Counted from the first letter of the stretch, positions 2,618 through 41,403 are shown. The stretch is DNA of 64,000 bases from Desulfobacteraceae bacterium Eth-SRB2 (GCA_004193595.1 RPGQ01000080.1:132307-196306), one strand, 5' to 3'. Numbers and translations are program-made. Notes: a model not told the origin generated them from the sequence alone.

Positions 2618-2632
2618 GCAAATATGATGCCA
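2618..2632 (-). promoter_or_regulatory. sigma-54 (-24/-12) promoter-like motif upstream of the L,D-transpeptidase
   Basis: The minus strand reads TGGCATCATATTTGCT, with GG and GC at consensus spacing (TGGCAC-N5-TTGCW). It lies 36 nt upstream of the ATG at 2582. Confidence 0.5.
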
Positions 2633-2924
2633 GAATATAAATGAGATAAGTAATGTTCTGCGTCCAATTAATTTATTTCTGAGGGTAAATTCACAGGCAT
2701 TGCAATTTAATGTAGTTTTGGGTATCCTCAAGAACCTCTGTTTTAGAATGCCCGGCAACTGTTTCAATAGCCCTGTTAACCGAAATTATAATGTTTTTGT
2801 GTCCATAATTACGATCCAGTCCTGAATCGTATCTTCCATCACTGTTATCCAATATTTGTTTAATTTCTGTTCAAACATTAACACCAACTGTCCAACATTT
2901 AAACATCCACGATGTTTAGATTCT

Positions 2925-3160
2925 AAACAGTTTGACGGTTGGATAACAACAAAAAATTTAAACTCGAACTTCAATTTTACCCTGTTTTATCCAGCAACCA
3001 GCAAAGAGTAGCCATCACCCCATCTTAATTGGCATAATTATTGCTGACTTATTTACATATTAAGTGGTAAACCAATGGGGCTCAATCGGACAGGTAGTTT
3101 AGAATGGATAAAGTAGTTCTCTTAACAGATCGCCCTGAAAGCGGAACTTTGGTGTAGAGA
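2925..3160 (+). repeat. Partial third copy (right arm only) of the sigma-54 promoter cassette seen at 7117-7690
   Basis: Aligns by eye with 7460-7690: acggttg.at.aca..aaaa..tttaa...caacttcaatt...aattggcat..ttattgct...aaagt.gttctcttaacagatcg.cctgaa. It contains a 17-codon remnant ORF MDKVVLLTDRPESGTLV* (3104-3157), homologous to the start of the ORF at 7640. Confidence 0.7.
3030..3044 (+). promoter_or_regulatory. sigma-54 promoter-like motif
   Basis: TGGCATAATTATTGCT. It lies 219 nt upstream of the ATG at 3263. Confidence 0.5.
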
Positions 3161-3262
3161 GATTTTTTGGGAATGTATCGAGAAGCCAGGTTAGAAAATC
3201 ATTCCTGTTAAAACAATAAAACAAAAACACTTAGAATCATATGAACGAAGGAGGAAAATGTC

Positions 3263-3793
3263 ATGAAAAAATGCTCTATTGGTTTAATGGCTATCGCTTG
3301 TATCATCTTCTGTTTTCACAGTCCGGTGTTGGCCGGTGATACCAAAGCCGCCAACCTTTCACTGTTCGACCCTGTTCAGATTTTTGATGCCGACACTTCC
3401 ATCAAAGGGTTCCGTTTGAACCTGATCTATGGTGTTAACCAGGACATGACAGGTCTTGACATCGGTCTCGGCAACCATGCCAAAGGCAACATGAGCGGTG
3501 TACAGTTAGGCCTGGCAAATATAGTGGGCAGCGATTTTAAAGGCTGGCAAACCAGCGTGGCAAATGTGGTCTACGGTTCCGGCGCCGGTCTCCAAATAGG
3601 AGTCTATAATTATGGAGAATCATTCCGTGGAATGCAGCTGGCTGCCGTCAATCACACAAAAAAATTCAGTGGGCTGGCTATCGGTGCGGTCAACTATACG
3701 GAAGTTCTTAATGGTCTCCAGATCGGCGTGCTCAATTTCAACTGGCGTGGAGAACCTCTTAAGTTCTTTCCTGTTTTCAATTTCTCTTTCTAG
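3263..3793 (+). CDS. Secreted or lipoprotein-like repeat protein (G-x-Q-[IL]-G-x-x-N repeats)
   Basis: GGAGG RBS and a signal peptide. Tandem degenerate repeats GVQLGLANIV / GLQIGVYNYG / GMQLAAVNHT / GLAIGAVNYT / GLQIGVLNFN. The protein ends in Phe. Confidence 0.6.
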   Translation: MKKCSIGLMAIACIIFCFHSPVLAGDTKAANLSLFDPVQIFDADTSIKGFRLNLIYGVNQDMTGLDIGLGNHAKGNMSGVQLGLANIVGSDFKGWQTSVANVVYGSGAGLQIGVYNYGESFRGMQLAAVNHTKKFSGLAIGAVNYTEVLNGLQIGVLNFNWRGEPLKFFPVFNFSF

Positions 3794-4468
3794 ATTATTC
3801 TCTGAGAAAAAGGATTGAATGATTGAAGTAATAAGAACTTGTTTTTTGAAGGCCAGGTGAGCAAAAATTTAAACCTGTGTACGAGCCGGTATAAAATCAC
3901 AAACCATGGTATGAGTCCTTCCTATTTTCAGAGAATGAAACTATTTTACGAGAGTTTAGTTTAGGATTCAGTCGTTTCATTGATTGTTAATAGTTTTCTA
4001 TAATTGAGTGCAAAATTAAAGGCTGCTCCTAAACAAAAATTATTTTGACGAATAGGTTGGTGATCAATCATGTTTAAAATATTACTGATCATTGCACTAA
4101 TGATGGCTATTTTTTGTATGTGTGTTGCTATAGTTGCCTTATTTGCTGCATCTCGTGAAAACGAATTGCCGGATATCGAGGATGTTGAATTCAATTGAAT
4201 AGCTCCATGAATAATCGGCCAACCATATCCCCGATACGCAGGAAAGGGAAATGCCGGTGCAACCAAAAAATCGTCACTGCTTCCGATGGTGTTGGATCAA
4301 CGGAGTTTTTCTTGCAGTGGTGGCATTGATCAGGACGGCCGGGACGATGTGTCTAAGCATAGAAAAGTTATTCAGCGGTTTGACCCGAAGACCAGTCAGA
4401 TGTTGAGTGAGACGTCAGCCGAGGACCTGGAAAATAACGGTATCGTGCTTTTGATGAGCTACAATCTT

Positions 4469-4702
4469 GACGGCTTCGTAAAAAGTCCAATTTCTGCGTT
4501 GCGCTTCATTTCGTGTTCACTGCTGCGTACATAAGTACGCCTCATTTTACGAAATTCGCGACGCCTTGAACTTGAACTTTTTACTTTGCCGTCTCAATTT
4601 TGACTTTCAAATAACTAAATCATAACTTGTTGATTTGATTGATAAGTTATTTTCGGTTACAGTACCGCGATGCGGCATAATCTAGCTTTTTACGAAACCA
4701 TC
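4469..4702. mobile_element. MITE-like element, family A, copy 1 (composite)
   Basis: Terminal inverted repeats gacggcttcgtaaaaagtc ... agctttttacgaaaccatc, flanked by a direct 6-bp AATCTT duplication (4463-4468 and 4703-4708). An internal third TIR-like sequence (gaactttttactttgccgtc, about 4571-4590) suggests nesting. Confidence 0.6.
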
Positions 4703-4952
4703 AATCTTACCCATGGAATAAAATGCGCGAATCTATGCAGGGACAATCATCCCGTGGACGTTAGTCTGGGGTTCGGCCTTGCCAAGCGCTGGTCTAAAAG
4801 ATGGTACAACTATGCATCGTTGGGATACACTCTGTATGAATCCCGAGAAGTTCTGGAGCCGGCAACATCAGTGACTGGATGATTTAAAAGAATTGATCGG
4901 TTATAGCTTATCCTTCTTCCTGTAAACCGTTCCTGTAAAAAGGGCGATTAAA

Positions 4953-7040
4953 TCATTGTTTTATTTTTACACTCGGGAATGCATTAAGATTAGTATGCGG
5001 CAAAAAAAGTGCCGATGTAAATTCATCCATAAACCGGTTGTTACTGCTAAAGTCTATGTAAGTCATATTATTTGAAACTTCCCTGGCTTCATTTCTGTAA
5101 TCATCTGAGAGCAGGGCCATGTAAGCGCCGGCAATTGAGCTGTTACCTAAGTATTTGAATTTGTCGTGGTCTATGTCCGGAAGCAGACCGATGGTTATCG
5201 CCTTTTCAACATTAAGATACTGGCCGAATCCGCCGCTGATTAGAATCCGGTCTATCATAGAAAAATCGAGCCCCGCCTGCTCCAAAAGAACCATAAATCC
5301 GGCATATACAGCTCCTTTGCTCAAAGTTAAACTGTGAATATCAATTTCAGTAAAGACAATATCCTCTTGCATAGGCGTCTCATCCGCAAATGCTATGATA
5401 TAGGCCAGGTCTTCACCATCCTGTTTCATTCTATAATGATTTTGATCAATTTTATATTTTCCGTCCTGGCCGATAACACCCGTGAGCAGCATTTCGGATA
5501 TTAAATCGATCATGCCGGAGCCGCAAATGCCGCGGGGTGAAACATCGCCAACTGTGGAAAGAGTCGGATCAAGGGTTTCCGGATCTATGGATACTTTTTC
5601 AATGGCTCCCTCTTCTGCACGCATGCCCCAGCGGATCCCCCCGCCTTCAAATGCCGGACCGGCCGAGCAGGAGGCCGTCATCATCCAGTCCTGGTTGCCC
5701 AGAACGATTTCCCCATTGGTCCCCACATCAATAAACAGGGTTAAGGCATCCTCGCGATGAAGCCCTGAGTAAATCATACCCGATACGATGTCTCCACCCA
5801 CATAGCTGGCCGGACCGGGCATGATAAATACCGCTGCAATGGGATTGGCTTTTATGCCGATATTACCGGCCTTTAAAATCGGAAATTCTGAAACCGAAGG
5901 AACATAAGGCTCTCGCCGAATATACCTTGGTTCGATTTTCAAAAGCAGATGTGTCATGGTGGTGTTACCGGAAATCACCACATTTTTAATATCTTTAAAA
6001 TTCTTGTCTACACTGTCAAGTGCTTCGTTTATTAAATTGTTAATGGTTGATAGGGCCATGCGGCTCAATTTGGCAACCCCGTCTTTTTCAGCGCAAACAA
6101 TCCGGTTAATCACATCATCTCCACAGGCGCACTGTCTGTTATGGCCCGAGGTGGCTGCAATGATGGAACCATCGGTCATATCAATAAGATAAACCACGAT
6201 AGAGGTTGTGCCCACATCGATAGCAAGTCCCAATGATTTTTCCTGGCCGTTCCCAGGTCTGACATTTAGGATCTCATTTGAACATTTTTTCCGCATAACA
6301 GATGCCGTGATGTTCCAGTTCTCCTCCCGCATGGCAGTTGCTAATTCTCTCATCACTTTAATTCCCACACTCAATCTGTCAACATCACAACAACCGGTTT
6401 TTTTCAATCCACGGTTGAGCCGGTCCAGATCGCTGGACGAATCGTCCAAGGTAGGCGGCTCAAGCTCAAGGGGAAGCTCTATGAGCATGGGCTGAATATC
6501 TTTCACTAATCCTTTAAACCGATCTGTAGCTTTCCGGCCCATACCGGCAACTTTAAGTTTACGCTCTATAGTTTCTTCCGGAATTTTTACGGTAACATCA
6601 CCAAGCACCTTGGTTTGACAGGCAAGAATATAATTTTTTGCCTTTTCCTGGTCGCTGAGCAAAGTCGTGGGTTCGCTTTTAATATTACCGGATTCTATGA
6701 TCAATTTGCATTTGCCGCATGATCCTTTGCCGTTACAGGAGGCATTAATATGTACATCCGCAGCAACGGCTGCTTCCAACAGGGTGCTTCCTTCAGGCAC
6801 TGAAATTTCTCTATCTTCAGGTTTGAAGATAACCTTAAAGGTTTTTACATCTTCTTGGGCTCTGGTTTCCAGGTCCCAGTCCTTTTGCTTTTTATCTATA
6901 AACCAGATCGGACATGATGAACGAAATTTACAGAATATTTCCGGGTCTGGGCATTTTAGACATTCCTCACACATATAAGTATTGTACTTTAGACATAAAA
7001 AACTGGTTTCCCTGTCTGGATGATTTGCACATTTACCCAT
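4953..7040 (-). CDS. RACo-like ASKHA ATPase (DUF4445-type) with a plant-type 2Fe-2S ferredoxin domain and an N-terminal Cys/His cluster
   Basis: 2Fe-2S motif CNGKGSCGKCKL...ACQ. ASKHA phosphate motifs LAIDVGTTSIV and LFIDVGTNGEIVLG...CSAGPAFEGG. N-terminal cluster CANHPDRETSFLCLKYNTYMCEECLKCPD. AGGAGA RBS. Confidence 0.8.
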   Translation of the reverse strand: MGKCANHPDRETSFLCLKYNTYMCEECLKCPDPEIFCKFRSSCPIWFIDKKQKDWDLETRAQEDVKTFKVIFKPEDREISVPEGSTLLEAAVAADVHINASCNGKGSCGKCKLIIESGNIKSEPTTLLSDQEKAKNYILACQTKVLGDVTVKIPEETIERKLKVAGMGRKATDRFKGLVKDIQPMLIELPLELEPPTLDDSSSDLDRLNRGLKKTGCCDVDRLSVGIKVMRELATAMREENWNITASVMRKKCSNEILNVRPGNGQEKSLGLAIDVGTTSIVVYLIDMTDGSIIAATSGHNRQCACGDDVINRIVCAEKDGVAKLSRMALSTINNLINEALDSVDKNFKDIKNVVISGNTTMTHLLLKIEPRYIRREPYVPSVSEFPILKAGNIGIKANPIAAVFIMPGPASYVGGDIVSGMIYSGLHREDALTLFIDVGTNGEIVLGNQDWMMTASCSAGPAFEGGGIRWGMRAEEGAIEKVSIDPETLDPTLSTVGDVSPRGICGSGMIDLISEMLLTGVIGQDGKYKIDQNHYRMKQDGEDLAYIIAFADETPMQEDIVFTEIDIHSLTLSKGAVYAGFMVLLEQAGLDFSMIDRILISGGFGQYLNVEKAITIGLLPDIDHDKFKYLGNSSIAGAYMALLSDDYRNEAREVSNNMTYIDFSSNNRFMDEFTSALFLPHTNLNAFPSVKIKQ

Positions 7041-7117
7041 TTTGCTTATCTCCTATATTTATTTGCTAAAAAGATACTCCCGCATATGCGGTTGTCAATA
7101 TAACCCCCTAAAAAATA

Positions 7118-7159
7118 GCAAATCGACCCTAAGGACCTATCCCTTAGGGGCCGATTTGC
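7118..7159 (-). promoter_or_regulatory. Conserved leader hairpin between the minus-strand sigma-54 promoter and the RACo-like gene
   Basis: gcaaatcgaccctaagg...ccttaggggccgatttgc forms an imperfect stem of about 16 bp. On the minus-strand RNA it is followed by UAUUUUUU, which is terminator-like. Confidence 0.45.
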
Positions 7160-7226
7160 CAATTAAAAAGGGGAGAAATATGAAAATAGAGGTTGCCAAC
7201 TTAACCTCTAATTAAATCAAATAAAA

Positions 7227-7242
7227 GCAAATAATATGCCAC
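7227..7242 (-). promoter_or_regulatory. sigma-54 promoter-like motif facing the RACo-like gene
   Basis: The minus strand reads GTGGCATATTATTTGCT. It lies 187 nt upstream of the ATG at 7040. Confidence 0.55.
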
Positions 7243-7564
7243 AAATCAGGTTTAATGGATTTTTTTAAAATTAATGTTAAATGGCTTCATATGGCTCCGG
7301 ACGCTCGTCCTTAATATGCTCGCAATTCGCGCCGCTTCGGATAGGTTGACTCCTGAATCGTGTCCACCACGGTTTTTCAATAATTGTTAAGCTCATGTAC
7401 AAACCCGAGCCCCTTCTTGTCCAAAATATAAACACTTATGCTGTTCAATTGCTTAACACATTACGGTTGAATGACAACAAAACTTTTAACTCCAACTTCA
7501 ATTCTACACTTTATTTATCCATCAACCCGCAACCGGCAAGCAAAAACCCTTACCCAGTCTCAAT

Positions 7565-7579
7565 TGGCATCATTATTGC
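7565..7579 (+). promoter_or_regulatory. sigma-54 promoter-like motif facing the small-protein operon
   Basis: TGGCATCATTATTGCT. It lies 61 nt upstream of the ATG at 7640. Confidence 0.55.
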
Positions 7580-7639
7580 TGTATTATTAATTGAACCGAT
7601 GGGTAAGCCTAAAGACCTCAAGTGGACAGGGGGTTTACA

Positions 7640-7804
7640 ATGAATAAAGTTGTTCTCTTAACAGATCGTCCTGAAGAATGTGAAACCCTGATATCATGCC
7701 TTAAGATACTGTTTCCCGAGTGCGAGGTTCAGATTCAGCCAAAGCAGGTAGCCAAGTTGCAGCGTACGTCTTTGGCTTTAGAACCTTCCACATCTAAAAA
7801 ATAA
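7640..7804 (+). CDS. Small hypothetical protein (54 aa)
   Basis: MNKVVLLTDRPEECETLISCLKILFPECEVQ..., with a purine-rich stretch upstream. A truncated paralogue start is conserved at 3104. Confidence 0.35.
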   Translation: MNKVVLLTDRPEECETLISCLKILFPECEVQIQPKQVAKLQRTSLALEPSTSKK

Positions 7805-7879
7805 TGGCGGAAAACAGTGCATATGGCTAAGGAGCAGTGACAAATGACCAAGGGGGGAGCAGCGATAAGGAGGATAACA

Positions 7880-8296
7880 ATGGCATCAAACTTCAGAATT
7901 TATTGCCATCAAACCAGGGATAACCTTCATCTTAAGCTTATGGGAGACTTTGACGGTTCATCCGCCTATGAACTGATCAATACCCTAAAAAAATATCGCG
8001 GCATTGCCCGAAGAGTTTTTATCCACACATGCTTTCTTTCTTCGGTTTATTCTTTTGGTTTGGATGTATTTCAAAAAAGTTGTACGATCAAAAAACTGTC
8101 GCGGATACTGACCTTTACTGGTGAATATGGGAACGAATTGGCGCCTCATGGGAGTATTTTACTAAAACCCAAATCGGAGGTATTTCATGACAACGATGAT
8201 CGGTATCATATCAAAAAAGCTTCAGGACAGAGGACTGATTCCCCTGGAAATAAACCGGCTTATAAAGGATGTGGCCAACGTAATGAGCAGTGGTAA
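7880..8296 (+). CDS. STAS-like (anti-sigma-antagonist-fold) small protein
   Basis: MASNFRIYCHQTRDNLHLKLMGDFDGSSAYELINTLKK...FTGEYGNELAP resembles STAS-type proteins. The 3' end overlaps the next ORF by 110 nt, so the true stop is uncertain. Confidence 0.45.
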   Translation: MASNFRIYCHQTRDNLHLKLMGDFDGSSAYELINTLKKYRGIARRVFIHTCFLSSVYSFGLDVFQKSCTIKKLSRILTFTGEYGNELAPHGSILLKPKSEVFHDNDDRYHIKKASGQRTDSPGNKPAYKGCGQRNEQW

Positions 8297-8444
8297 GTAT
8301 TGTACACCGGTTTGCGTTAAGCAGAATTTGGAGCGTCTGGGATGGGAAGGTTATGTTTTAGATAATAATATATTGGAACTTATTTCTTTATTCCTTAGCG
8401 ATCAAAAAATGTATCGAAAAGAATGTAATTTTAATAGGTTTTAG
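8187..8444 (+). CDS. Hypothetical protein (85 aa)
   Basis: GGAGG lies 6 nt upstream of the ATG. No family was recognised. Confidence 0.4.
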   Translation: MTTMIGIISKKLQDRGLIPLEINRLIKDVANVMSSGKYCTPVCVKQNLERLGWEGYVLDNNILELISLFLSDQKMYRKECNFNRF

Positions 8445-8464
8445 AAATTCTGAGATGCAAGGTC

Positions 8465-8662
8465 ATGGGGATATTTATCAAAAATAATGCGGACAGGCGT
8501 TCAGGAATTGAAAGAAGGGTATTTTCATACACCCTCCATATTTCGGAACGAAGATCGGGCAAAGAACGAAGGAGAAGTTTAGGCCGAAGAAGTGGAAGGG
8601 GCATTAAGTTCCCGATCATTTTTGAACAGGCTCCATTCTCTCAGGATTTGGATAATACCTGA
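8465..8662 (+). CDS. Arg-rich small protein with RRSG-x-ERR repeats
   Basis: DRRSGIERR, ERRSGKERR and GRRSGRG repeats within 65 aa. It is the last ORF of the sigma-54-driven cluster. Confidence 0.4.
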   Translation: MGIFIKNNADRRSGIERRVFSYTLHISERRSGKERRRSLGRRSGRGIKFPIIFEQAPFSQDLDNT

Positions 8663-8952
8663 CGGCCTGAAAAAACTATTTTTTCATATTAAAAACCCCC
8701 AGATTTTTCAGACTTTAGGTAAATGTAAATAACAACAGCAACATAAAAAATTGTGATGCCAAAAATTATATACACTAACATATCATTCCGCCTATTAATA
8801 TTTCATGTATCGGCAAATATATTTAAAATCTGAACCTCTCTGGATAGATGCGTACGGTTAAAGGGTGTTCCAGCCCCTGACCATGGAAAAACTCAGGGAG
8901 GAAATGATAGGATTTATGGGCGATGGTGTAAGATATCTGCCCAATTATTTTG

Positions 8953-9480
8953 TTATGCCTTTCCTTTTATTCCCTCTATTTTCTTCATTTCCTTCTCAAA
9001 GCATTCCGGACAGACGCCATGAGAAAATTCCACATCGGCCCTTTTAGAAATAAAATTCTCAATTCTCTTCCACGCCCGCGGATCTTTGGGATTCCCACCA
9101 TCAATTCGAATCTTCTTGCACTTAAAGCAGATCGGAAGAATACCGTGTAAAGTCGTTTGAACTTCAGACAAGAGTCGTGATTGAACGTCTATGCCAATGA
9201 ACACAAATAAGGCTCCGAAGAGGAATATGAGGCTCACGAACGTCTCACTGATTAATGAATATTTAAAAACAAATGCCGTCAGAGTCACTAAATAGCCGAA
9301 GAAGAAAAATATCATGAGTCCACGATGCAGTAATATGTATCGCTTAATATGTTTTCGTTGGCGTTCAGGGACAAACGGCAAGGCTTCCATAAGCCCCTTT
9401 GCCCTGATAATACTGGTCAGCATAATGATTGCGCCAAAAAATATGAAAAGGCAGTTCCCAATTGTCTGTATGCTCATCAT
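8953..9480 (-). CDS. Four-TM membrane protein with a C-terminal CxxC...HGxCPxC motif
   Basis: Hydrophobic N-terminal 110 aa, then CFKCKKIRIDGGNPKDPRAWKRIENFISKRADVEFSHGVCPECFEKE. Confidence 0.6.
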   Translation of the reverse strand: MMSIQTIGNCLFIFFGAIIMLTSIIRAKGLMEALPFVPERQRKHIKRYILLHRGLMIFFFFGYLVTLTAFVFKYSLISETFVSLIFLFGALFVFIGIDVQSRLLSEVQTTLHGILPICFKCKKIRIDGGNPKDPRAWKRIENFISKRADVEFSHGVCPECFEKEMKKIEGIKGKA

Positions 9481-9533
9481 CCAAAATCCTCTTCGTGTTT
9501 CTTGCTGTCATTGCGTATGATCTTTGGCCTTCA

Positions 9534-9575
9534 GCAAATCGACCCAGAGGACCTATCCCTTAAAGGCCGATTTGC
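9534..9575 (-). promoter_or_regulatory. Conserved leader hairpin (copy B)
   Basis: gcaaatcgacccagagg...ttaaaggccgatttgc. There is no U-tract in this copy. Confidence 0.4.
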
Positions 9576-9637
9576 CGATTAAAAGAGGAGTAATATGAAA
9601 ATGGAGGTTGCCAAGTTAAACACCAAAAAGATAAAAA

Positions 9638-9653
9638 GCAAATAATATGCCAC
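9638..9653 (-). promoter_or_regulatory. sigma-54 promoter-like motif facing the gene at 8953-9480
   Basis: The minus strand reads GTGGCATATTATTTGCT. It lies 158 nt upstream of the ATG at 9480. Confidence 0.55.
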
Positions 9654-9974
9654 AAATCAGGTTTAATGGATTTTTTTAAAATTAATGATGAATCGCTTCA
9701 TCTGGGTCCAGACGCTCGTCCTTATATGCACAAAATTCACGCCGCTTCGGACGGGTTGACTCCTAAATCGTGTCCACCACGGTTTTTCAATAATTGTTAA
9801 ACTTTTGTACAAACATGCCCCCCCCTCTTGTTCAAAATATAAACACTTATGCTGTTCATTTATTTAACAGATTAACGGTTGGATGACAAAAAACTTTTAA
9901 CAGGAACTTCAATTCTACACTATTCTATCCATCAACCCACAACCGGAAATCAAAAACCAGCAGACAATCTTAAT

Positions 9975-9989
9975 TGGCATATGTATTGC
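9975..9989 (+). promoter_or_regulatory. sigma-54 promoter-like motif facing the cytochrome gene
   Basis: TGGCATATGTATTGCG. It lies 263 nt upstream of the ATG at 10252. Confidence 0.5.
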
Positions 9990-10251
9990 GGCATCGGAAT
10001 GAAAAACACAAAAATAAACAGGCTTGAAAGAGATAGCAATTTACAACCTCGATCTTAACTGCTATCGTGTTAAAGGCAATTTAATAGTGACAAGATCATG
10101 GTGTAAGATGATCCAAAAACCAATTTTTAATTTTGAGAAATTCTTGATCAATAAGGTTCTGCATCAATTTTGTCTGCACCTTAAGTATTGTCAATGAAAT
10201 CCATTTTTGGGGTGTATTTCCTATTTGGAATTTAACTGGAAGGAGATTTAG

Positions 10252-11562
10252 ATGAAATCATTAAAATTTTTCTCGTTTGCCATGCTTTTTTTAGGAGTTG
10301 TTTTTTTATTTGCTTCCCCAAACAATGCCGGAAATAGCGATAAATTTAGTGCCATGGATTATAACCGCCCTCTTGAGCACCAAGAATTGGAAGAATATGT
10401 TGGGCCATCCACATGCGCTGAGTGCCACGAAGATGCCATAGATGATTTAATGAGCTCCAGTCATTACACATGGGATGGGAAATTTAAAAAGGGCGGGAGA
10501 TACTCCAAATGTCGAATGTCAGCCGTGCCAATCAACTGGTTGGGCGTTGTGTTCAAAAACAATCACATGCATGATAGATGCGGGCTTTGCCACATTGGTG
10601 GCGGACCCATGCCCGTGGATCCTGCAAAAGCTACAGATGAGGACAAGGATAAACTGGACTGCCTCATCTGTCACGCCACAACGTATGACACAACCGTGCG
10701 GGTTCCAAAGCAAGTAAACGGGAAATGGATTCTGCCCCAGGACAGGAGCCTGGAAGCAGCAAAAAGTGTTGGAAAACCTACCCAGAACAACTGTTTGCGC
10801 TGTCATTATGTTGCTATTTGCGATTACAAAAGGGGAGCTGACATAAAAAATGACATCCATTTTAGGAGTAATATGAGTTGCACAAAATGTCACAGAGTGG
10901 AAAATCACAGATTTCCGGGATTTGGCCCGACCATGTCACGAGAAGTGTCACAACGCGTTCGGTGTACAGATTGCCATGCTCAATCACCGCACGGAAATGA
11001 AACATTAAACAAACATGTACGGATTGACTGCCGAACATGTCACGTGGTTTCCGCAGGGGGAGTTTTCTATAAAAATTCAACAAAAAACAGTATATTTATA
11101 GAGAAAAAAGGCATTTACAAAATTGAAGAAAAGTTTGGTATAACACGCCCCGTGTATTTTTGGTACGATGGTGTTTCCCGGGGGCCGGTACCCAAGGGAA
11201 GTATTGATGATCCGTCATCCAAAATCCAACCTTTTAAGAATTACACGGGTGTTGCCCCGGTGGATAAGAAAACCGGAGATTTTCTATGGCTCGACCTCGG
11301 TATGTTTACCAAAACAGGTGATATAGAAAAGGCAATTAAGGCAGGTGTCGATGCAAACGGCCGACTTTACAGCGGGTCATGGGAACCAAAAAAATATGAC
11401 GTTTACTTTCAACTCAGTCATGGTGTAACCGTAGAACGATCTCTGCAATGCAATGACTGTCACAAACCATCCGGGATTATGGATTTTAAAGCACTTGGTT
11501 ACACTGAAGAAAAAGTAAAGGAGCTAACCAAAAAAAGAGAGTCCATAAAGGTGCAGCTTTAA
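10252..11562 (+). CDS. Periplasmic octahaem c-type cytochrome
   Basis: Signal peptide plus eight CxxCH motifs (CAECH, CGLCH, CLICH, CLRCH, CTKCH, CTDCH, CRTCH, CNDCH). GGAGA RBS. Confidence 0.85.
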   Translation: MKSLKFFSFAMLFLGVVFLFASPNNAGNSDKFSAMDYNRPLEHQELEEYVGPSTCAECHEDAIDDLMSSSHYTWDGKFKKGGRYSKCRMSAVPINWLGVVFKNNHMHDRCGLCHIGGGPMPVDPAKATDEDKDKLDCLICHATTYDTTVRVPKQVNGKWILPQDRSLEAAKSVGKPTQNNCLRCHYVAICDYKRGADIKNDIHFRSNMSCTKCHRVENHRFPGFGPTMSREVSQRVRCTDCHAQSPHGNETLNKHVRIDCRTCHVVSAGGVFYKNSTKNSIFIEKKGIYKIEEKFGITRPVYFWYDGVSRGPVPKGSIDDPSSKIQPFKNYTGVAPVDKKTGDFLWLDLGMFTKTGDIEKAIKAGVDANGRLYSGSWEPKKYDVYFQLSHGVTVERSLQCNDCHKPSGIMDFKALGYTEEKVKELTKKRESIKVQL

Positions 11563-11616
11563 AAAATGAAATTCCTATACTACAGATTATAGGGTGAAGA
11601 TGCGGAAATACCATAA

Positions 11617-11826: not shown

Positions 11827-11846
11827 AACTATAGGAGGTGAACACT

Positions 11847-12203: not shown

Positions 12204-12303
12204 TCGGCAAAGTTCAATAAGATACTTTAAGCAAACCTTTTTTCAATTTTTTAAGTCATAACAGCATGGTCTGAAATATCCAAAACTGCAGAGACGTAAT
12301 CGG

Positions 12304-18688: not shown

Positions 18689-18710
18689 TACCTCTCTCCT
18701 TTTATATTTT

Positions 18711-21964: not shown

Positions 21965-23405
21965 TCATTTTTTTCTAAAGGCATTCGCCTTTACCTTATA
22001 CCGACGCATAATTTGCTGTAACGCCTGACGTTCCAGTCCGCAAGATCGTGCGGCCTGTGTCACATTACCGTTGTTTGCCGCAAGCAGATTGCCGATATAG
22101 CCGGCATTAAAATGCTGCAACGTCTGCTCTTTGGCTTCTTTATAGGGCAATCGTTGGAAAGAATTTTCCATACGTGAATCATCTGGCAGGATTTCATTAA
22201 AATTAATGTCACGAGGTCTGATTTCATCGGTAGTGGAAAATAGTATTCCCTGTAAAATAATATTTTCCATTTCCCTCACATTCCCAACCCAGGTCCTTTT
22301 TAAAAAGAGATTCATCAATTCCGGAGACAGCCTTTTTAAAGGTTTATTTAATTTAGCGCAATGTTTTTCCAATAAATGGTTGGCAATCAAAGGGATATCC
22401 TCTGGACGATCCCTTAACGCCGGCAGTTCAATGGACACCACATTCAAGCGATAATAGAAATCTTCCCTGAACTCGTTGTTTGAAATTTTTTCAGCCAGGT
22501 TCTGATTTGAAGATGAAATTATCCGGACATCAACCCGGATAACCCTGGTATCTCCCAATGGCTTTATCTCTTTTTCCTGTAATACCCGCAGCAGTTTGGT
22601 CTGAATGGTGGGGCTGATATCTCCGATTTCATCTAAGAAAATAGTACCCTTATGAGCTTCTTGAAAAAGACGCCTGCCTTTGGGTGCGCCGAGTAAAACG
22701 CCCCTGCATTTGGTTCCACCACCTCTTTGCGATATTCTCCGGCACCGTAGGGCAGTTTACCGCTACATAAGGGCCCCGACTGCGGTTACTCAGAGCGTGA
22801 ATAGCTCTGGCCGTCAAATCTTTTCCGGTGCTCACCGGTAATAAGCACCGTTAAATCTGTTTTGGCTACGGTCTGAATGGTTTCATAGACCTTCTTCATG
22901 AGGGTACTCTTCCCCACCAGGATCCTGAATATGCGAACACCCCGCACTTCTTTCTGAAGTCCTCAAGTTTTCGTATGCGTTTCTTTCAAAAAAGCCTTTT
23001 CGAGTCCTTTCAACAATTCAGGCATCATGGCTCAAAGGGTTTCGAGATAAAATCATAGGCCCCCAGTTTCATGGCTTCAATGGCTGTTTCTATGGTGGCG
23101 TATCCTGTGATCACGATGACTTGAATTGCCTGGTCCATCTCACGAATGTGTTTAAGAACCTCCAGTCCGTCCATACCCGGCATTCTCAAATCTAGAAGCA
23201 CAATGGAAGCTTTCTCCTTTTCCAGGACAGCCAGCCCCTCATCCCCGCGAGATGCCTTTAGAACCTGGAAACCGATTCGGGTAAGGATTCGTTCAGATGC
23301 ATCCCGGATATCCTGTTCATCGTCCACAACCAATATTATAGCGTCAGATTTTATCTCCACTTTCTTCTCCTTGGTTTTCCTTGTCCGCAACGGGAAACTC
23401 AACAA
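21965..23405 (-). pseudogene. Decayed NtrC-type sigma-54-dependent response regulator (enhancer-binding protein)
   Basis: The receiver domain (23025-23405) and the AAA+/HTH C-terminal part (LFQEAHKGTIFLDEIGDIS...RVDVRIISSSN...FREDFYYRLNV...TQAARSCGLERQAL) are readable. The middle is broken into at least 3 frames. Walker A reads GGTGAG-C-ACCGGAAAAG (GE.TGK instead of GESGTGK), and the ESELFGH/GAFTGA region is scrambled. Confidence 0.8.
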
Positions 23406-32010: not shown

Positions 32011-33473
32011 CTTCCCAGCATTAAATTGATTATATTAATGAAAAAATCCGGATACACGCCGAACACTACGGAACCTAGGGCCGTTAAAAATAAAGGAATG
32101 ACCATAAACATAATCAACGGAGAGCCCTCAAGGAACCTGCCGTCAGTGGTGTCTCCGGGCAGCGGTTTCCCGAAAAACGACGTGAAAAAGACCGGAACAA
32201 AATACCCGGCATTGAGCAGGCTGCTCACCAGGATTACGGTCAGAAGAATCATATTATGAACATCAAGGGTGCCCAAAGCCAGATACCATTTGGTCACAAA
32301 CCCGCTGACCGGCGGGACTCCGATCATGCTCAAAGAAGCAAGACCAAAGGCAACCATGGTAAAGGGCATGCGCCATCCCACCCCGCCCATCTCCGAGATA
32401 TCTTTTTTTCGTGTGGCAACGAAAATGGCGCCCGCACAAAAAAACAGGGTGATTTTGGCGAATGCGTGGTTGGTAATATGGATAAGCCCGCCGGTAATAC
32501 TGTTGGGCGTCAGCATGGCCACGCCCAGAATAATATAGGAAAGCTGGCTCACCGTGGAGTACGCCAGCCGCATCTTAAGATTGTTTTTGGTCAATGCCAC
32601 CACCGATGCCGTGATAATGGTAAAAGACGCCAGGTAGGCGGTAAAGGTTCCCAGACCCAGAATGTCGAGCAGGTTCACCCCGAAGACCGAGAGCATCACT
32701 CTGGCCGTGCAAAACACCCCCACTTTAACTACAACCACCGCATGGAGAAGGGCGGAGACCGGGGTCGGGGCCACCATGGCCGCAGGGAGCCAGCCGTGTG
32801 TGGACTATCCCGCGTGCGTTTCGATCAGTTGTTGAAGTTTGCGTGTTGATATCTGGTGCCCTTCTCTTTGAGATTCAATATTTTGATAACAGCGGTGAAA
32901 TTATTAAGCTGTAAAGGCGCTATTTTTCAGATCTGTTTGTCGGCGGAAAGAGCCGCAGTTGAGGACTGACCTGGTGACCCTTAAGGCATTATTGCCAACT
33001 ATGGTTACCGTTCAGTATCAGGAGATCGATATTACGCCGAATTTTCAGAATAGAAGTGATCTTGTCCTGGATCGGAAATACGTTCCGGTGTATCGCCTGT
33101 GGAATATTGTGAGCGATCAAATTGTCCCTCGAGGTGTATGTGCATGCTCGTCCAGCCCGCGCATATATCCAACGCAGTAAAATCCCGCCATAATCCACAG
33201 AAAGGAAGAGGTTCCGGCAAATAGTATGCCAAGACCGTCCAGATGAAATTTGACACTGACCCCGGGATAAAGGGTGAATAACGTATATTCGTAAGATCCC
33301 TTTGCAAGAACATGCGGCAACACGTGTAGAACAGAAAGGAAGGTGAGCACCGCCCCGAATACGGAAAATGTCTCCCTTAAATTGGGTCTGTTCTTGGATC
33401 CTATGATGAGAAGGGCCGTAATCATAGGGATCATCGGTGTCAAAATAATTTTGCCGGTTATAATTGTTTCCAT
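32007..33473 (-). pseudogene. Fourth antiporter-like (MrpD/NuoM-type) subunit gene, interrupted
   Basis: The N-terminal 110 aa (33145-33473, ...FLWIMAGFYCVGYMRGLDEH) and the C-terminal 260 aa (32007-32797, GWLPAAMVAPTPVSALLHAVVV...) are recognisable. The central part, about 120 aa, is missing and is replaced by unrelated sequence (see the repeat at 32799-33139). Confidence 0.7.
32799..33139 (+). repeat. Inverted, diverged copy of the nuoH-3'/nuoI-5' junction (source 34593-34933)
   Basis: The plus strand here aligns with the minus strand of 34593-34933 over about 341 bp at roughly 80-85% identity with small indels. Example: tggac.tatcc.cgcgtgcgtttcgatcagttgttgaa.tttgcgtg ... cgctatttttcagatctgtttgtcggcggaaagagcc ... 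atggttaccgttcagtatc ... gagatcgatattacgccgaatttt ... acgttccggtgtatcgcctgtggaat. Confidence 0.8.
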
Positions 33474-33531
33474 ATTTATTCCATAAAAGCGCCTAACATA
33501 AGCTAACGTCTACCCTATTTTACGGGGTCTG

Positions 33532-35805: not shown

Positions 35806-35930
35806 AAGTTAACGTTTCGTAAGTTCTACAACTTTTTGAAAATTCACGTTTATCAATTGCAAGCAGTATGCGCTAACCCCTAACTCCAGATCTAACAATA
35901 TAAGGGGCTATAATCATTGAATTATATATT

Positions 35931-37043: not shown

Positions 37044-37060
37044 AATCTATGGGTACATGA

Positions 37061-37606
37061 CTATAAGTCGGATGAGGTTTCGGTCTGGATATCGACCATA
37101 TCCGGACGTTGGGCCGGCCAGGAAACCTCCTCAAATGATTTTAGTTTTTTCTCTTCCTTTAGCAACGGATGAAAATCTTTGTCTTCTTCACAAAGAAGAA
37201 GGGGCTCAAGATTGGGATGGTCGCTGAACCGTATCCCATAAAAGTCACGGGTCTCTCGTTCATGCCAGTTTGCGCCCTGGTAAATATGGCATATGCTGGG
37301 AACGGTCATGTCCTCGGGCACGGAAACCCGGGCTTTAACGCGACAAAGCCGGTCAAACGTTGCGAACTGGTAAACCATCTCCAGTCCGGAAGTTTTGACC
37401 CCCTCCACGGTCTCGGGCAGGACATGAATCCCGGTGACAAAAACCAGGTAAAATCCGTGATCATAGGCGGTTTGAGCAAACTTTCGAACCGTGTCCACTG
37501 TCAGCACAACCTCCAGATGATACCCCCGCTGATGAAAGTCGGTCTCCGTGACATCACCCCCGAGATTCATCACATTGGTTTTGAAATCCTCATAGGTCCC
37601 CATCAT
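37061..37606 (-). CDS. nuoC: NADH-quinone oxidoreductase subunit C
   Basis: NuoC motif [20 protein letters not shown]. The start is set at MMGTYEDF (GGAG RBS, 4-nt overlap with nuoB). The longer ORF-track start overlaps nuoB. Confidence 0.8.
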
Positions 37607-38232
37607 AACTCCAATCCTTTGACCTTCCTTTGGGGAACATCCGGGTGACGGTTCTGGGGCATGGGATGACGCACGCCCGTAATCTTTTCCTGAAGTTTCA
37701 AAATGCCCTCCAACAAACCTTCCGGCCGGGGAGGACACCCGGGAACATACACATCCACCGGGATAAGCTTATCCACCCCTTCGATAATATTATAGTTTTC
37801 CTTTACATTGAATGGACCGCCGGAAATTGCACAGTTGCCCATAGCAATCACCCATTTGGGAGAAGGCATCTGCTCATACAGGGTTAGCAAGACCGGAGCG
37901 AGTTTCCGGTTCACCGTACCGGCGACGATCATCAAATCGGACTGCCTGGGCGAAGGTCGGAACACCTCTGCTCCGTAACGGGAAATATCAAACCGGGCCA
38001 TGCCGGTTCCCATCATCTCGATGGCACAGCAGGCAATCCCGAACGTCATGGGCCATAGGGAATTTGCCTGGCACAATTTCAACAATTTGTCGGTCAGGTC
38101 CATGCGCAGTAAAGGGCCGGAATCAAGGTTCATACGGCCGTTGGAAAGGCCGGCATAACATTCCGCCTTAATCCGTTCCGTATAGGACTCCAAATCGGGC
38201 TTCACTAACGAAGGGTTTGTTTTCTCTCCCAT
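37603..38232 (-). CDS. nuoB: NADH-quinone oxidoreductase subunit B
   Basis: N2-cluster motifs [19 protein letters not shown] and VPGCPPRPE. Confidence 0.9.
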
Positions 38233-38609
38233 GTAAAGACTCCTTTGGCCCATGCATACACAATGGCCAAGGTTAAAATGCCGATAAAAATAAAGATTTC
38301 TATCACGCCACGAGCACCCGAAACCTTGTCAAAAGATGCCGCAACCGGAAACAGGTACAAAATATCAACATCAAACGCCAGAAAGATGAGGGCATAGAGA
38401 TAATATGCAATGCCGTAACGATAGTCCCAGGCTTTACCGTAAGTATCCATCCCGCATTCATAGGTGTTGAGGGATTTTTTCAGATGAGTCCGTTTCGGAC
38501 GGATGAACCAGTTCACAATGAACGGTGCAAATCCTCCGATAAAACCGACCATGAGGAAAAGAAATATATACATATAATCTATAATATTGTTTTCAGTCAT
38601 TGCCACCAC
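38205..38609 (-). CDS. nuoA: NADH-quinone oxidoreductase subunit A
   Basis: 134 aa with 3 TM helices. YECGM and [10 protein letters not shown] motifs. Confidence 0.85.
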
Positions 38610-38651
38610 GCAGTTGAGTTGTTACCACAATTAACAGATGCAATTTATTGT

Positions 38652-40343
38652 TTATATCCAGATTTCGAGCTTGAAGAAGCGGAAGAACAGGAAAAACATA
38701 ACAATTGCCAATGCAATCTTCAGGGTTTTTTCACTGAAAAGCTTCTGAGCACGGCTTCCCAGCATGCCTCCGACAAAACCGCCAATGATAATAGAAATAA
38801 AAATATACATGTCAGGCCAATATTGATTCACCGCATACCCGATGAAAGAACCGATACTGGAAAAGCACGTCCCAATAAGGGCAATGGGTACCGCCACATA
38901 CATGGGTAGAGCGGCAATTGTTGTCATGATAGGAACCAACAGGAAACCTCCGCCGATACCGAATGACCTCGCAACGACACCGACAAAAACGCCGATAATG
39001 CCGAATAGAAGGGGGTTGATTGTGAAATCTTCACCCCAGAACTTAAACTGATAATTGGTGAGGCCTGTCTTGATAGGTTCAATTTTGCCCATCACAGTGC
39101 TGCGCCCTTCAGCTTTAGCCCTGGCAACCTCTTCATTGAACTTTCTCGCCATGGCCTTGATGGCCTTTCTCTTGTCCATGACCTTCGGCGTTAGTTCATA
39201 CAGGGTTCTGATACCCATAAGCACAACCAGAACGGCCAGCCACTCCTTATATGATTTTATCGACAGATATTGGGTCACATACTTTCCCAGCCATATGGAA
39301 CCGAGTAAAATACCTGCGCCAAAGGAAAGGCCTATAGGCCATGCCACACGTCTTTCAACAATCGCATATCTGTAAAATGACCCTAAAGGAGAAAACAAAG
39401 TTAACCCCACGTTTGATGATCGAAGGACGTTGGCAGCATTGATACCGATAGGACCCATGGTATTTACAACCATAACCTGGTAGGCTGACATGAGCAGGCC
39501 GCCGGCCGCGCCGATCATAGAAAACCAGGCACCCACAATAATGGCGCCAATGATAATCCATATCGGGTTCATGTAACGCCCACCTCTTTTCAGCCAGAAA
39601 CCCTTTGGAGCCAAATTATAAGACCCAATTTTAGCGCCGTTTATCGTAACATCAAACTTATAATTGGGAGGTGTGTGTCGAAAAGACTTAAAAGAAGCCT
39701 TAAACTTTCCTGTTGCTTTGTCCAGATGGATTGACGTGCCCTTATCCCAATAATTCCCGGACTTGGCGTAATCTCCCAGAACATTCCGTGCAAAGATTAC
39801 GATTTTGCCTACTTTTGTCATTTCTTTGGTAACGGTATTAATGCCGTAATCGCTTTCATGCAGGAACTTAAAGAAATTCCACTGCTCTTTGGTATTCAAA
39901 CCCGGCAATATGCTTTTGGCTTCAGCATCAAGTTCTCCAAACGGTGATAACTTGAACATGGTGGTTGAATAAATTCCACCCATAAAAGACGGGCCGCCAA
40001 ATTTCATATCAATTTTCTTGCCAAATTTATCCGGATTAGTTGTCACCATATAGTAAAGAACAGGAACTCTTGTATCATTATTAAAACCGATTTTTTCGCC
40101 CTCTTTTTTAAACTTTTTAGTCTCATGAACCCCGGTTGTGTCTTTAGGTGCAAAGGCCTCTTGAGATGAAACAGCGATGTAAAGGTCCTGACCGGGATCA
40201 ATGGTCCCCTCTATTGTTACCATATCGCCAACCTGGTATTCCGATGCGGAAATGGTGGCCGAAGGGCTGCAAATGCCTGCACCTGTAGTAATGAAAACCA
40301 AACTGATTGACAATAATACTATAAACCATAGAGACTTTTTCAT
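38652..40343 (-). CDS. TauE/SafE-family membrane transporter fused to a 255-aa N-terminal extracytoplasmic domain
   Basis: Signal peptide and a soluble domain of unknown family, followed by two TauE repeats (IGAAGGLLMSAY..., FGIGGGFLLVPIM...) separated by a charged loop. It ends 43 bp upstream of nuoA on the same strand. Confidence 0.7.
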   Translation of the reverse strand: MKKSLWFIVLLSISLVFITTGAGICSPSATISASEYQVGDMVTIEGTIDPGQDLYIAVSSQEAFAPKDTTGVHETKKFKKEGEKIGFNNDTRVPVLYYMVTTNPDKFGKKIDMKFGGPSFMGGIYSTTMFKLSPFGELDAEAKSILPGLNTKEQWNFFKFLHESDYGINTVTKEMTKVGKIVIFARNVLGDYAKSGNYWDKGTSIHLDKATGKFKASFKSFRHTPPNYKFDVTINGAKIGSYNLAPKGFWLKRGGRYMNPIWIIIGAIIVGAWFSMIGAAGGLLMSAYQVMVVNTMGPIGINAANVLRSSNVGLTLFSPLGSFYRYAIVERRVAWPIGLSFGAGILLGSIWLGKYVTQYLSIKSYKEWLAVLVVLMGIRTLYELTPKVMDKRKAIKAMARKFNEEVARAKAEGRSTVMGKIEPIKTGLTNYQFKFWGEDFTINPLLFGIIGVFVGVVARSFGIGGGFLLVPIMTTIAALPMYVAVPIALIGTCFSSIGSFIGYAVNQYWPDMYIFISIIIGGFVGGMLGSRAQKLFSEKTLKIALAIVMFFLFFRFFKLEIWI

Positions 40344-40771
40344 TATCTTCCTCCTTTTAACTTAATAAAATTATTTGCCAATATTGCGCCAAGTCCGCTA
40401 AGGGCCGCCCCGATGGTAATTAAAAAAATTAACTCATTCATATAAATAGGATAAAACCCCATGAGATTGAAAAAAATGATATTTATGAGCACAACAGTAA
40501 TGATGACCATCAGAATACCGGAGCCTACGGCAAAGATTCGTTCATATTTTAGGCGGTTGTTTGTCCTGTTTATCAGGTTATACCCTGTTAATGTGGCATT
40601 GAAACCGATGATCCAGGGCAAAAGCTTTTCGATTGTACCGTAAGACATCAAGGTCGTAAAAAAAACCACAAGAAGCAGCGACCCCAAGCTCCCCACAATG
40701 ATAGAATAAGCAATTTTTTTGAATAGATTTGATTTATTCATTATCCGTAAACAAAGGTTTGTATATTCCAT
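40343..40771 (-). CDS. Four-TM hypothetical membrane protein
   Basis: 142 aa. Its stop overlaps the start of the TauE-fusion gene. Confidence 0.5.
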   Translation of the reverse strand: MEYTNLCLRIMNKSNLFKKIAYSIIVGSLGSLLLVVFFTTLMSYGTIEKLLPWIIGFNATLTGYNLINRTNNRLKYERIFAVGSGILMVIITVVLINIIFFNLMGFYPIYMNELIFLITIGAALSGLGAILANNFIKLKGGR

Positions 40772-40988
40772 ATGATTCGTAACCCTTCATCTTTTACCAT
40801 TCAACATTCTATGTTGGACGTTCATTTTTTTTCAGCAAACCTTCCACAGTCCATCCGACGCAAAAATAATTTAGCGCTTATGCGTGAACAGTTACCACCC
40901 GCCTCTTTTAAAGTCGCAGGTTATAGAAACCGCAGGCCTTCAAAAAAAAGTAGAAAATGGATGTAGCCGAATAGAAACTTTTTACATA

Positions 40989-41003
40989 GCAAACTATATG
41001 CCA
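40989..41003 (-). promoter_or_regulatory. sigma-54 promoter-like motif facing the membrane-protein/TauE/nuo gene string
   Basis: The minus strand reads TGGCATATAGTTTGCT. It lies 218 nt upstream of the ATG at 40771. Confidence 0.5.
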
Positions 41004-41388
41004 CCGGAAACCCGGCCCTTGTGTTTAAAAAACGAGGCCGGAGAGAGTTTAAATTTATAATGTTAAATCAATAGGATATCCTGAATTTTGGGGGGGAAGA
41101 AAAGAGTTCTAACAATTCGTGTCAAGGATCTTGAAAACATGATCGACTGCCATAAAATAATTGCGCATATTTCCATCCAGTTTATTTTATAGTTATTTCA
41201 AGAGAATATGCGCGCAATAAAAACATATCGATGCAATAAAAAATATGCACCTATTTGCACTTAACTATGGCCTTCTATGTAATTTTATCCATGGCCTTGA
41301 ATGAAAAAAACATCTTTTTATTTTGAAAATACAACATGTTCTAAAAAAGATAAGCCATAAAGAAAAATGAATCGGAAAACTTTTTTAA

Positions 41389-41403
41389 TGGTATGAATAT
41401 TGC
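41389..41403 (+). promoter_or_regulatory. sigma-54 promoter-like motif facing the molybdoenzyme gene
   Basis: TGGTATGAATATTGCT. GG/GC spacing is correct, with one departure (C to T) in the -24 box. It lies 378 nt upstream of the ATG at 41781. Confidence 0.35.

Follow-up and report, generated by a model that had tools for sequence, protein, structure and literature searches.

The window analyzed here is a 64,000-nucleotide stretch of DNA from Desulfobacteraceae bacterium Eth-SRB2 (GCA_004193595.1, RPGQ01000080.1:132307-196306), which contains eight motifs resembling sigma-54 (RpoN) promoters, arranged as four outward-facing pairs designated A, B, C and D. The best explanation of these motifs as a whole, to which a probability of about 0.7 is given, is that they are sigma-54 promoters of two different regulons. 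Modules A, B and C would be paralogous, collapsed copies of a single cassette, in which the gene for an enhancer-binding protein (EBP) has decayed and control has passed to an EBP acting in trans, with copies of a structured RNA of ~100 nt following the leftward promoters of B and C. Pair D would belong to a separate regulon.

Sigma-54 promoter motifs

An exact search of the window for TGGYAT-N5-TTGCK gives eight matches, compared with 0.19 on average and at most 2 in 100 dinucleotide shuffles of the window, none of which reaches eight. This comparison with random expectation bears out the eight TGG(C/T)AT-N5-TTGC(T/G) sites listed in the first-pass annotation of this DNA, which had located them correctly except for 1-nt errors in the minus-strand starts and in the end coordinate. 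All eight have the GG and GC elements exactly 10 nt apart, as in TGGCAC-N5-TTGCW-like promoter elements, and the gaps between the outward-facing TGGs are 397 bp in A, 323 bp in B, 322 bp in C and 385 bp in D. The layout of four outward-facing pairs with 320-400-bp spacers is therefore as first described, but the pairs are not equivalent or independent: because spacers A, B and C are homologous, six of the eight sites are not independent of each other, and since D is unrelated to them, the motif excess reflects two independent architectures rather than four. The promoter-like behaviour of the motifs is supported by their conservation in orthologous loci and by their association with EBP genes and upstream palindromes. 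For example, the -24/-12 elements of A, B and C are kept in six loci from related metagenome-assembled genomes (MAGs; loci L001, L002, L006, L022, L048 and L062).

A ninth, near-identical motif (TGGCATACTATTTGCC at 33231-33216, minus strand) was rejected as a further promoter, as it lies in coding DNA within a membrane-protein frame (..LDGLGILFAG..) and is a chance match, illustrating that the motif alone is no proof of a promoter. The frame that holds it (33117-33473, minus strand) encodes an N-terminal fragment of a NuoL/M/N-like membrane subunit, apparently truncated.

Modules A, B and C as collapsed activator cassettes

Over their full ~470 bp, spacers B (7117-7584) and C (9533-9994) show 80-93% identity, and spacer A has ~350 bp in common with both, while the spacer of pair D is unrelated. 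In a related MAG (L055), DNA matching the left end of modules B and C sits directly 3' of an intact EBP gene, which encodes a 460-aa protein with PAS, Sigma54_activat (GESGTGKE and GAFTGA motifs) and HTH_8 domains. Intact homologs with GESGTGKE, GAFTGA and HTH_8 are present in relatives, including copies elsewhere in the closest relatives of the window (L115, L116 and L131), and the PAS domain of the cassette EBP is Cys-rich (C53, C58, C61 and C75). Within the window itself, tblastn detects remnants of such a gene in all three spacers (Table 1). DNA of the window modules, including remnant A, is 77% identical to the EBP upstream region and first codons of the intact L039 cassette. Remnant B has lost ~1.2 kb from the interior of the EBP gene, and its deletion junction is common to C, L001, L002, L048 and L062. 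A further, more distant pseudogene at 23019-21989 shares 37% identity with the cassette EBP in the AAA+ and helix-turn-helix (HTH) regions, and has frameshifts, a stop codon and a lost GAFTGA motif. The window thus holds four EBP remnants, instead of the single activator pseudogene reported earlier. Six-frame translations of the window contain no EBP signature motifs, and no gene with Walker A, GAFTGA and a C-terminal HTH_8 is present in it, only the remnants.

A complete, intact cassette is found in L107, where a divergent TGGCATCATTATTGCT lies 180 bp 5' of the EBP start, palindromes lie at -51 and -27, and the 460-aa EBP gene is followed, 15 nt past its stop codon, by a sigma-54 motif and then by the RNA (105 bits with the covariance model described below). 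The order deduced for the intact cassette is an operon beginning with a gene for a 54-aa protein, transcribed outward from the rightward promoter (P_right), then the palindromes, the EBP gene transcribed in the opposite direction, and a sigma-54 promoter leading to the ~100-nt RNA. In intact cassettes the palindromes stop ~10 bp before the EBP start codon, and the sigma-54 promoter lies 15-20 nt past the EBP stop codon. As the EBP gene was cut to a remnant of 140-280 bp, the outward promoters came to stand 320-400 bp apart with the palindromes between them. At least three types of deletion junction can be distinguished (A-type, B/C-type and L022-type), all of which keep both promoters and the palindromes.

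Comparison of window positions 7585-9640 with L002 shows a single module between the RACo and octahaem cytochrome genes in L002, and two modules (B and C) in the window, separated by the operon of the 54-aa and STAS-like genes and by a gene for a Cys-motif membrane protein, indicating segmental insertion or recombination between module copies. The region also contains a repeat of ~140 bp resembling a miniature inverted-repeat transposable element (MITE), with inverted termini CGTAAAAAGTC...GACTTTTTACG, at 4470-4610. It also occurs in L001, L003, L004, L016 and L039; its copies break sigma-54 modules in L001 and L039, and in L003 and L004 they lie between the -10 element and the Shine-Dalgarno (SD) sequence of RACo.

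Palindromic candidate enhancers

The upstream activating sequence (UAS) of the cassettes is a 17-bp palindrome, TGTTYA-N5-TRAACA (TGTTCAAAATATAAACA-type), present in two or three copies per cassette. With at most one mismatch, it occurs six times in the window, compared with 0.78 expected, and all six matches form pairs with starts 24 bp apart, confined to spacers A, B and C. Their distance is ~100-140 bp to P_right and ~160-280 bp to the leftward promoter of each module. Candidate activator sites of the kind looked for ~80-250 bp upstream of sigma-54 promoters are therefore present in A, B and C; those of D take the form of three conserved repeats. The earlier suggestion that each pair shares enhancer sites is supported at the level of candidates, and the shared inverted repeats that were to be looked for in the four spacers are common to A, B and C but not to D, which has different repeats. 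All cassettes, whether intact or reduced to remnants, have a UAS pair just 5' of the EBP start codon, down to EBP orthologues of ~63% identity, and this co-localization suggests that the sites belong to the cassette EBP family.

A predicted structured RNA downstream of the leftward promoters of B and C

Copy B of the RNA has a predicted fold with a free energy of -38.6 kcal/mol (z -5.4), and a covariance model of the family assigns 125 bits to copy B and 107 bits to copy C, finding only these two in the window and two more divergent copies elsewhere. A search of the genome collection for the RNA-core pattern gives 62 matches, of which ~45, in unrelated taxa, are chance hits. All 19 non-redundant copies in Desulfobacteraceae-type MAGs carry TGGCAT-N5-TTGC 21-27 nt upstream, compared with none of the ~45 matches in unrelated taxa. 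The family comprises at least 21 copies in ~10 MAGs, with up to five per genome (in one MAG, at L047, L048, L056, L064 and L107). Its long helix (helix 2) is 97.6% paired across the 19 copies, compared with 33-55% in slid-register controls, and shows compensatory exchanges, for example in columns 57-98 (GC 10, AU 6, GU 3) and columns 55-100 (UA 11, CG 5). A U-run follows the hairpin in 14 of the 19 copies; the other five, including copy C of the window, continue into a conserved extension.

The association of the RNA with the EBP extends beyond the close family. In EBP orthologues of 58-66% identity (L005, L120 and L128), a sigma-54 motif lies ~20 nt past the stop codon, and behind it comes an RNA built in the same way, with a CUUGGCA-loop hairpin, a CU-rich stretch and a strong terminator, indicating that the linkage is old. 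Copy B has the features of a base-pairing small RNA (sRNA), namely its own promoter, a structure backed by covariation and an intrinsic terminator, and copy C lacks the U-run. The family has an invariant CU-rich, anti-Shine-Dalgarno seed, written AUUUUCAUAUUACCCCCCUU, and most likely acts by blocking ribosome-binding sites. In the predicted fold of copy C, the CU-rich CUCCUCUU pairs with the SD sequence AAGAGGA (SD at 9488-9494) of the membrane-protein gene into which this copy runs, which suggests that anti-SD pairing may here be used in cis.

At the Rfam gathering threshold, only two adjacent tRNA genes (62330-62402 and 62426-62500, plus strand) are matched in the window, and the RNA matches no family, Qrr included; at a permissive threshold, the family that comes nearest is RybB, with 19 bits where 40 are required. 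Literature searches found no published description of the family.

The apical loop of the long hairpin, GGAUAGG (7135-7141 and 9551-9557), is constant despite covariation in the stem, and the distant L005 homolog also has GGAUAG, around position 1020; the loop may be a protein-binding loop (GGA motif). In eight loci (L008, L028, L036, L047, L054, L055, L059 and L064), a conserved CGTTAC/GTAACG repeat array (GCGTTACAnnATCGTTACnnnnCGTTAC...GTAACGC) follows ~50-130 nt past the RNA terminator. The array lies upstream of moaA in several loci, and probably consists of binding sites for another regulator, possibly one related to molybdate or tungstate in view of moaA.

Features of the window

Table 1. 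Positions of the promoter motifs, candidate enhancers, RNA copies, EBP remnants and associated features, counted from the first nucleotide of the window
Feature	Position	Strand	Remarks
Pair A leftward sigma-54 motif	2617-2632	-	TGGCATCATATTTGCT; exact search
EBP remnant A	2633-2878	-	PAS residues ~1-81, with stops and frameshifts; tblastn of L055 EBP, E=1.2e-11
UAS pair A	2889-2929		TGTCCAACATTTAAACA at 2889 and TGTTTAGATTCTAAACA at 2913, starts 24 bp apart
Pair A rightward sigma-54 motif (P_right)	3030-3045	+	Exact search; kept in L006
Truncated remnant of 54-aa P_right gene	3104-3157	+	MDKVVLLTDRPESGTLV, then stop
Gene for 176-aa lipoprotein	3263-3793	+	Follows 54-aa gene remnant in A
Putative RACo sigma-70-type promoter	7071-7098	-	TTGACA-16-TATCTT; right after U-run of RNA copy B, followed by SD and RACo start
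RNA copy B, ~100 nt	7104-7215	-	5' hairpin, single-stranded AUUUUCAUAUUUCUCCCCUUUUUAAUU, 20-bp terminator hairpin, U-run
Pair B leftward sigma-54 motif, candidate promoter of RNA copy B	7226-7241	-	Exact search and RNA-family linkage
EBP remnant B	7261-7403	-	Residues 2-19 joined to 427-458 (HTH end); E=8e-6 and 3e-3
UAS sites B	7385-7458		7442-7458, 7418-7434 and weaker third at 7385-7401
Pair B rightward sigma-54 motif (P_right)	7565-7580	+	Exact search; same gene pairing in intact cassettes
RNA copy C, leader variant	9520-9630	-	No U-run after hairpin 2; runs into Cys-motif membrane-protein gene
Pair C leftward sigma-54 motif, candidate promoter of RNA/leader C	9637-9652	-	Exact search and RNA-family linkage
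EBP remnant C	9672-9816	-	Junction of B, with extra stop codons
UAS sites C	9795-9869		9853-9869, 9829-9845 and weaker third at 9795-9811
Pair C rightward sigma-54 motif (P_right)	9975-9990	+	Exact search; cytochrome pairing in L001 and L048
Further, more distant EBP pseudogene	21989-23019	-	tblastn; frameshifted
Pair D leftward sigma-54 motif	40988-41003	-	Exact search; 13 orthologous loci
D conserved block	41063-41078		TTAAATCAATAGGATA; 13-spacer alignment
D three repeats	41148-41165, 41214-41229, 41232-41249		GCAATAAAA-type (TGCAATAAAAA..TGC-type; TGCAATAAAAAAATTGC); 13-spacer alignment
Pair D rightward sigma-54 motif	41389-41404	+	TGGTAT...; exact search; 13 orthologous loci

Genes adjacent to the promoters

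The genes flanking the four pairs include those for an L,D-transpeptidase, a RACo-like protein, a multihaem cytochrome, a DsrE-like protein, TauE with nuoA/B/C/D/H, and a TorD-fused molybdoenzyme. The first-pass identifications are mostly right. RACo is probably not a target, and the leftward promoter of C would lead into the RNA leader before the membrane-protein gene.

The leftward motif of pair A lies ~35 nt 5' of the L,D-transpeptidase (ldt) start (ATG at 2582, preceded by GAGG), and ldt orthologues in L006 and L062 have the same sigma-54 motif at equal distance. In B, the predicted P_right transcript covers first the 54-aa gene (7640-7804) and next the STAS-like gene (about 7880-8296); the 54-aa gene (MDKVVLLTDRPEEC...) follows P_right in window module B and in five intact cassettes (L107, L113, L115, L116 and L118). 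In three distant cassettes (L117, L120 and L121), the first gene after P_right encodes a small ..DLKRILPEaSF.. protein instead, which looks TusA/SirA-like and may be related to the 54-aa MDKVVLLTDRPEEC protein. P_right of C would drive the octahaem cytochrome gene (10252-11562) and then the DsrE-like gene, a pairing also present in L001 and L048. To the left of pair C, behind the RNA leader, lies the gene for the 175-aa Cys-motif membrane protein (9480-8953, minus strand).

RACo has a sigma-70-type promoter sequence of its own, and in RACo orthologues of 91-93% identity (L003 and L004) the whole sigma-54 module is absent and TTGACA-16-TATCTT is kept. Because this promoter persists without the module, and because the terminated RNA lies between, RACo is probably neither sigma-54-controlled nor a target of the leftward promoter of B.

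Pair D

Pair D is, on comparative grounds, a conventional and stable divergent sigma-54 control region, unrelated to A, B and C. Its leftward motif points to a predicted transcript for a 142-aa membrane protein, TauE and nuoA/B/C/D/H, and its rightward motif to the TorD-fused molybdoenzyme gene (41781-44573). Thirteen orthologous loci (molybdoenzyme identity 74-95%) keep both motifs ~385 bp apart, with a variable distance to the ATG. When aligned, the 13 spacers are otherwise diverged, and the blocks that are kept are the two promoters, TTAAATCAAT..GATA and the three repeats. The blocks other than the promoters may be sites of DNA bending and of enhancer binding by an EBP different from that of the cassettes. 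A search of the D spacer for an EBP remnant found none, and no EBP gene is linked to D in close relatives; a nearby EBP gene occurs only in two distant loci (L089 and L090).

Proposed mechanism

In the proposed mechanism, an intact EBP paralogue encoded elsewhere in the genome would bind the palindromes of A, B and C and activate both flanking sigma-54 promoters through DNA looping. This would place the L,D-transpeptidase, the operon of the 54-aa and STAS-like genes, the octahaem cytochrome operon and the two RNA copies in one regulon, whose signal may be redox, by analogy with the activator OrpR discussed below. The CU-rich anti-Shine-Dalgarno stretch of the RNA would repress translation by pairing with ribosome-binding sites, with the terminator-ended copy B acting in trans, and copy C, which has no terminator, acting in cis on the membrane-protein gene. 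Pair D would be served by a different EBP through its own triple repeat.

Several observations weigh against this mechanism. Promoter activity and the existence of the RNA are both deduced from sequence, and the trans-acting EBP of this genome would have to lie outside the window. No TGTTYA-N5-TRAACA palindrome occurs within 600 bp of the stand-alone RNA copies or of copies behind an intact EBP gene, so that the assignment of the RNA promoters to the cassette EBP is weaker than that of P_right. Two divergent RNA copies (L037 4353-4462 and L039 6629-6739) are without the canonical sigma-54 motif, and the association of motif and RNA is thus 19 of 21 and not absolute. The RNA was scanned against 199 candidate translation-initiation regions in the window, and its strongest pairings are no better than those of shuffled seeds, the best duplexes (-26.8 to -28.2 kcal/mol) falling within the shuffled-seed range. 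Finally, within B-type modules the EBP remnant is conserved at 0.85-0.90, the same level as the promoters, and segment-wise conservation therefore cannot separate live from inert elements.

Alternative explanations

The most direct alternative, and the one closest to the first-pass annotation, treats the region as four independent divergent pairs, each driving its two nearest protein genes through shared enhancers, in an unusual coordination of envelope, redox and energy genes. All of the motifs are indeed real, each pair contains candidate enhancers, and pair D and the leftward promoter of A fit as originally described. This alternative is nevertheless considered unlikely, given the paralogy of A, B and C and their construction on EBP remnants, the conserved structured RNA after the leftward promoters of B and C, and the conserved promoter belonging to RACo itself, which is kept in close relatives where the module is absent; in addition, the layout is common in Desulfovibrio (PMC4641369, PMC8359166) and not unusual. 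The promoters, palindromes and RNA of A, B and C could instead be inert debris of decayed cassettes that has not yet been mutated away. The neighbouring EBP genes are dead, the conservation of the remnant at the level of the promoters is compatible with recent decay or gene conversion, and the region has other pseudogenes as well as the MITE-like repeat. Inert debris is quite unlikely, however, because the varied deletions, with their three or more junction types, spare the same elements (P_right, the UAS pair, the RNA promoter and the RNA), because pairing in the RNA terminator is maintained by compensatory changes, and because promoter-gene pairings (ldt, cytochrome and 54-aa gene) are kept across several MAGs. 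Moreover, between the -12 element and hairpin 1, and in the flanks, identity falls to 0.48-0.58, compared with 0.83-0.96 in the elements.

Two further alternatives concern parts of the modules. The CU-rich stretch of the RNA might be the reverse complement of a micro-open reading frame (micro-ORF) on the opposite strand, to the left of B and C, which has a well-spaced SD sequence (GGGGAG) and ATG and encodes MK(M/I)EVAKLN..., with its first 9-10 codons (MKMEVAKLN) conserved in the close family. The length of this frame varies from 11 aa to more than 36 aa, its tails are unrelated, the conserved TTGCCAAG motif falls in another frame in the distant homolog L005, and the L128 sequence, read by eye, has no in-frame ATG. 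No conserved promoter precedes it on that strand. Only the RNA strand carries the sigma-54 motif (in 19 of 21 copies) and the U-run (in 14 of 19), and a coding origin is very improbable. The inverted 16-nt motifs might also be read as the terminal inverted repeats of a MITE-like mobile element and not as promoters, since the module is repeated, is present or absent between close genomes and ends in inverted, similar 16-mers. Hardly any weight is given to this idea: the RNA lies outside the left ‘repeat’ and yet accompanies it, including where a copy stands alone and the right partner is missing, the motifs are anywhere from 287 to 544 bp apart, an intact or remnant EBP gene fills the space between them, and the motif fits the sigma-54 consensus with exact -24/-12 spacing. 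A search for target-site duplications, which was not systematic, saw none.

Significance

Several features of the collapsed-cassette interpretation appear to be new. These are the specific UAS, the modules orphaned when the EBP gene was lost, and an RNA family that is absent from Rfam and from the literature found and has a multi-copy, Qrr-like organization among uncultured Desulfobacteraceae. The divergent sigma-54 layout is not new, being documented in Desulfovibrio. The wiring diagram of the region is corrected in that RACo is probably outside sigma-54 control, two unannotated, predicted RNA genes are added, and three apparent intergenic spacers are recognized as dead activator genes. In addition, a specific, testable enhancer motif is defined for a Cys-rich PAS EBP in uncultured sulfate reducers, and the modules would illustrate, in a concrete case, the spread of a sigma-54 regulon through cassette duplication and activator loss.

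A more general and tentative extension, somewhat doubtful at present, is that duplication of an EBP-sRNA cassette followed by EBP loss yields compact bidirectional enhancer-promoter modules, which wire neighbouring genes into the regulon of an EBP acting in trans and at the same time multiply a Qrr-like anti-Shine-Dalgarno sRNA. If correct, the L,D-transpeptidase, octahaem cytochrome and membrane protein would have joined the regulon of a probably redox-sensing EBP, and regulons of uncultured marine Desulfobacteraceae would have grown repeatedly in this way. The retention of the 3' end of the EBP gene would be accounted for as well, by its serving as the upstream region of the sRNA promoter.

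Comparison with known systems

The closest parallels are found in Desulfovibrio vulgaris Hildenborough, in which divergent sigma-54 operons lie around or beside an EBP gene, as in the orp and type III secretion system (T3SS) loci, and 6 of 13 one-component EBP genes are divergent from a sigma-54 target promoter (PMC4641369, PMC8359166). Contrary to what had initially been supposed, back-to-back sigma-54 promoters are thus not uncommon in this group, and these parallels mean that the general architecture is already known in sulfate reducers. Non-coding RNAs are located directly 3' of the D. vulgaris EBP genes DVU0653 and DVU0679 (PMC4641369), resembling the order of EBP gene, sigma-54 promoter and non-coding RNA described here, although these are response-regulator EBPs, compared with the PAS one-component EBP of the cassette, and the RNAs are set side by side by description only. 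As in module C, the D. vulgaris EBP DVU3142 is divergent from a sigma-54-driven octahaem cytochrome operon, ohc (PMC4641369), and the TSUP (TauE) transporters within the D. vulgaris sigma-54 regulon (PMC4641369) recall pair D. By contrast, multi-copy RNA genes and orphaned modules are not described in that study.

The activator OrpR (DVU2106) has a redox-sensing [4Fe-4S] cluster in its Cys-rich PAS domain (PMC8359166) and controls the two divergent sigma-54 operons of orp (Fievet et al. 2011, as cited in PMC8359166). Like the cassette EBP, it is a one-component PAS-AAA+-HTH EBP with a Cys-rich PAS domain and a 17-bp imperfect palindromic UAS, and sigma-54 promoters flank its gene on both sides. 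The intact cassettes also lie amid orp-like genes, encoding Nitro_FeMo-Co/DUF5320 proteins, MinD/ParA-Fer4 ATPases, thioredoxin, CooT and MoaA. However, the cassette UAS TGTTYA-N5-TRAACA is unrelated to that of OrpR (GGGCGYRTTTTGCGCCC), the Cys residues are C53/C58/C61/C75 as opposed to C52/C61/C65 in OrpR (PMC8359166), and one flank of the cassette is an sRNA and not an operon, with the EBP gene itself deleted in the window. The cassette EBP was accordingly considered and rejected as an OrpR orthologue, as it has neither the C52/C61/C65 triad nor the GGGCGYRTTTTGCGCCC palindrome, and orthology is not claimed because of these differences in Cys spacing and UAS.

A more distant comparison is with the Qrr sRNAs of Vibrio, controlled by LuxO and sigma-54 (PMC10162802). 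The phylum, the EBP type (PAS here, receiver domain in LuxO) and the seed all differ, and there is no match in sequence or structure. The organization is nevertheless similar, with several paralogous sRNAs of ~100 nt that share a conserved single-stranded seed, a sigma-54 promoter for each copy, one copy beside the EBP gene and, by analogy, an expected action through base pairing at translation-initiation regions.

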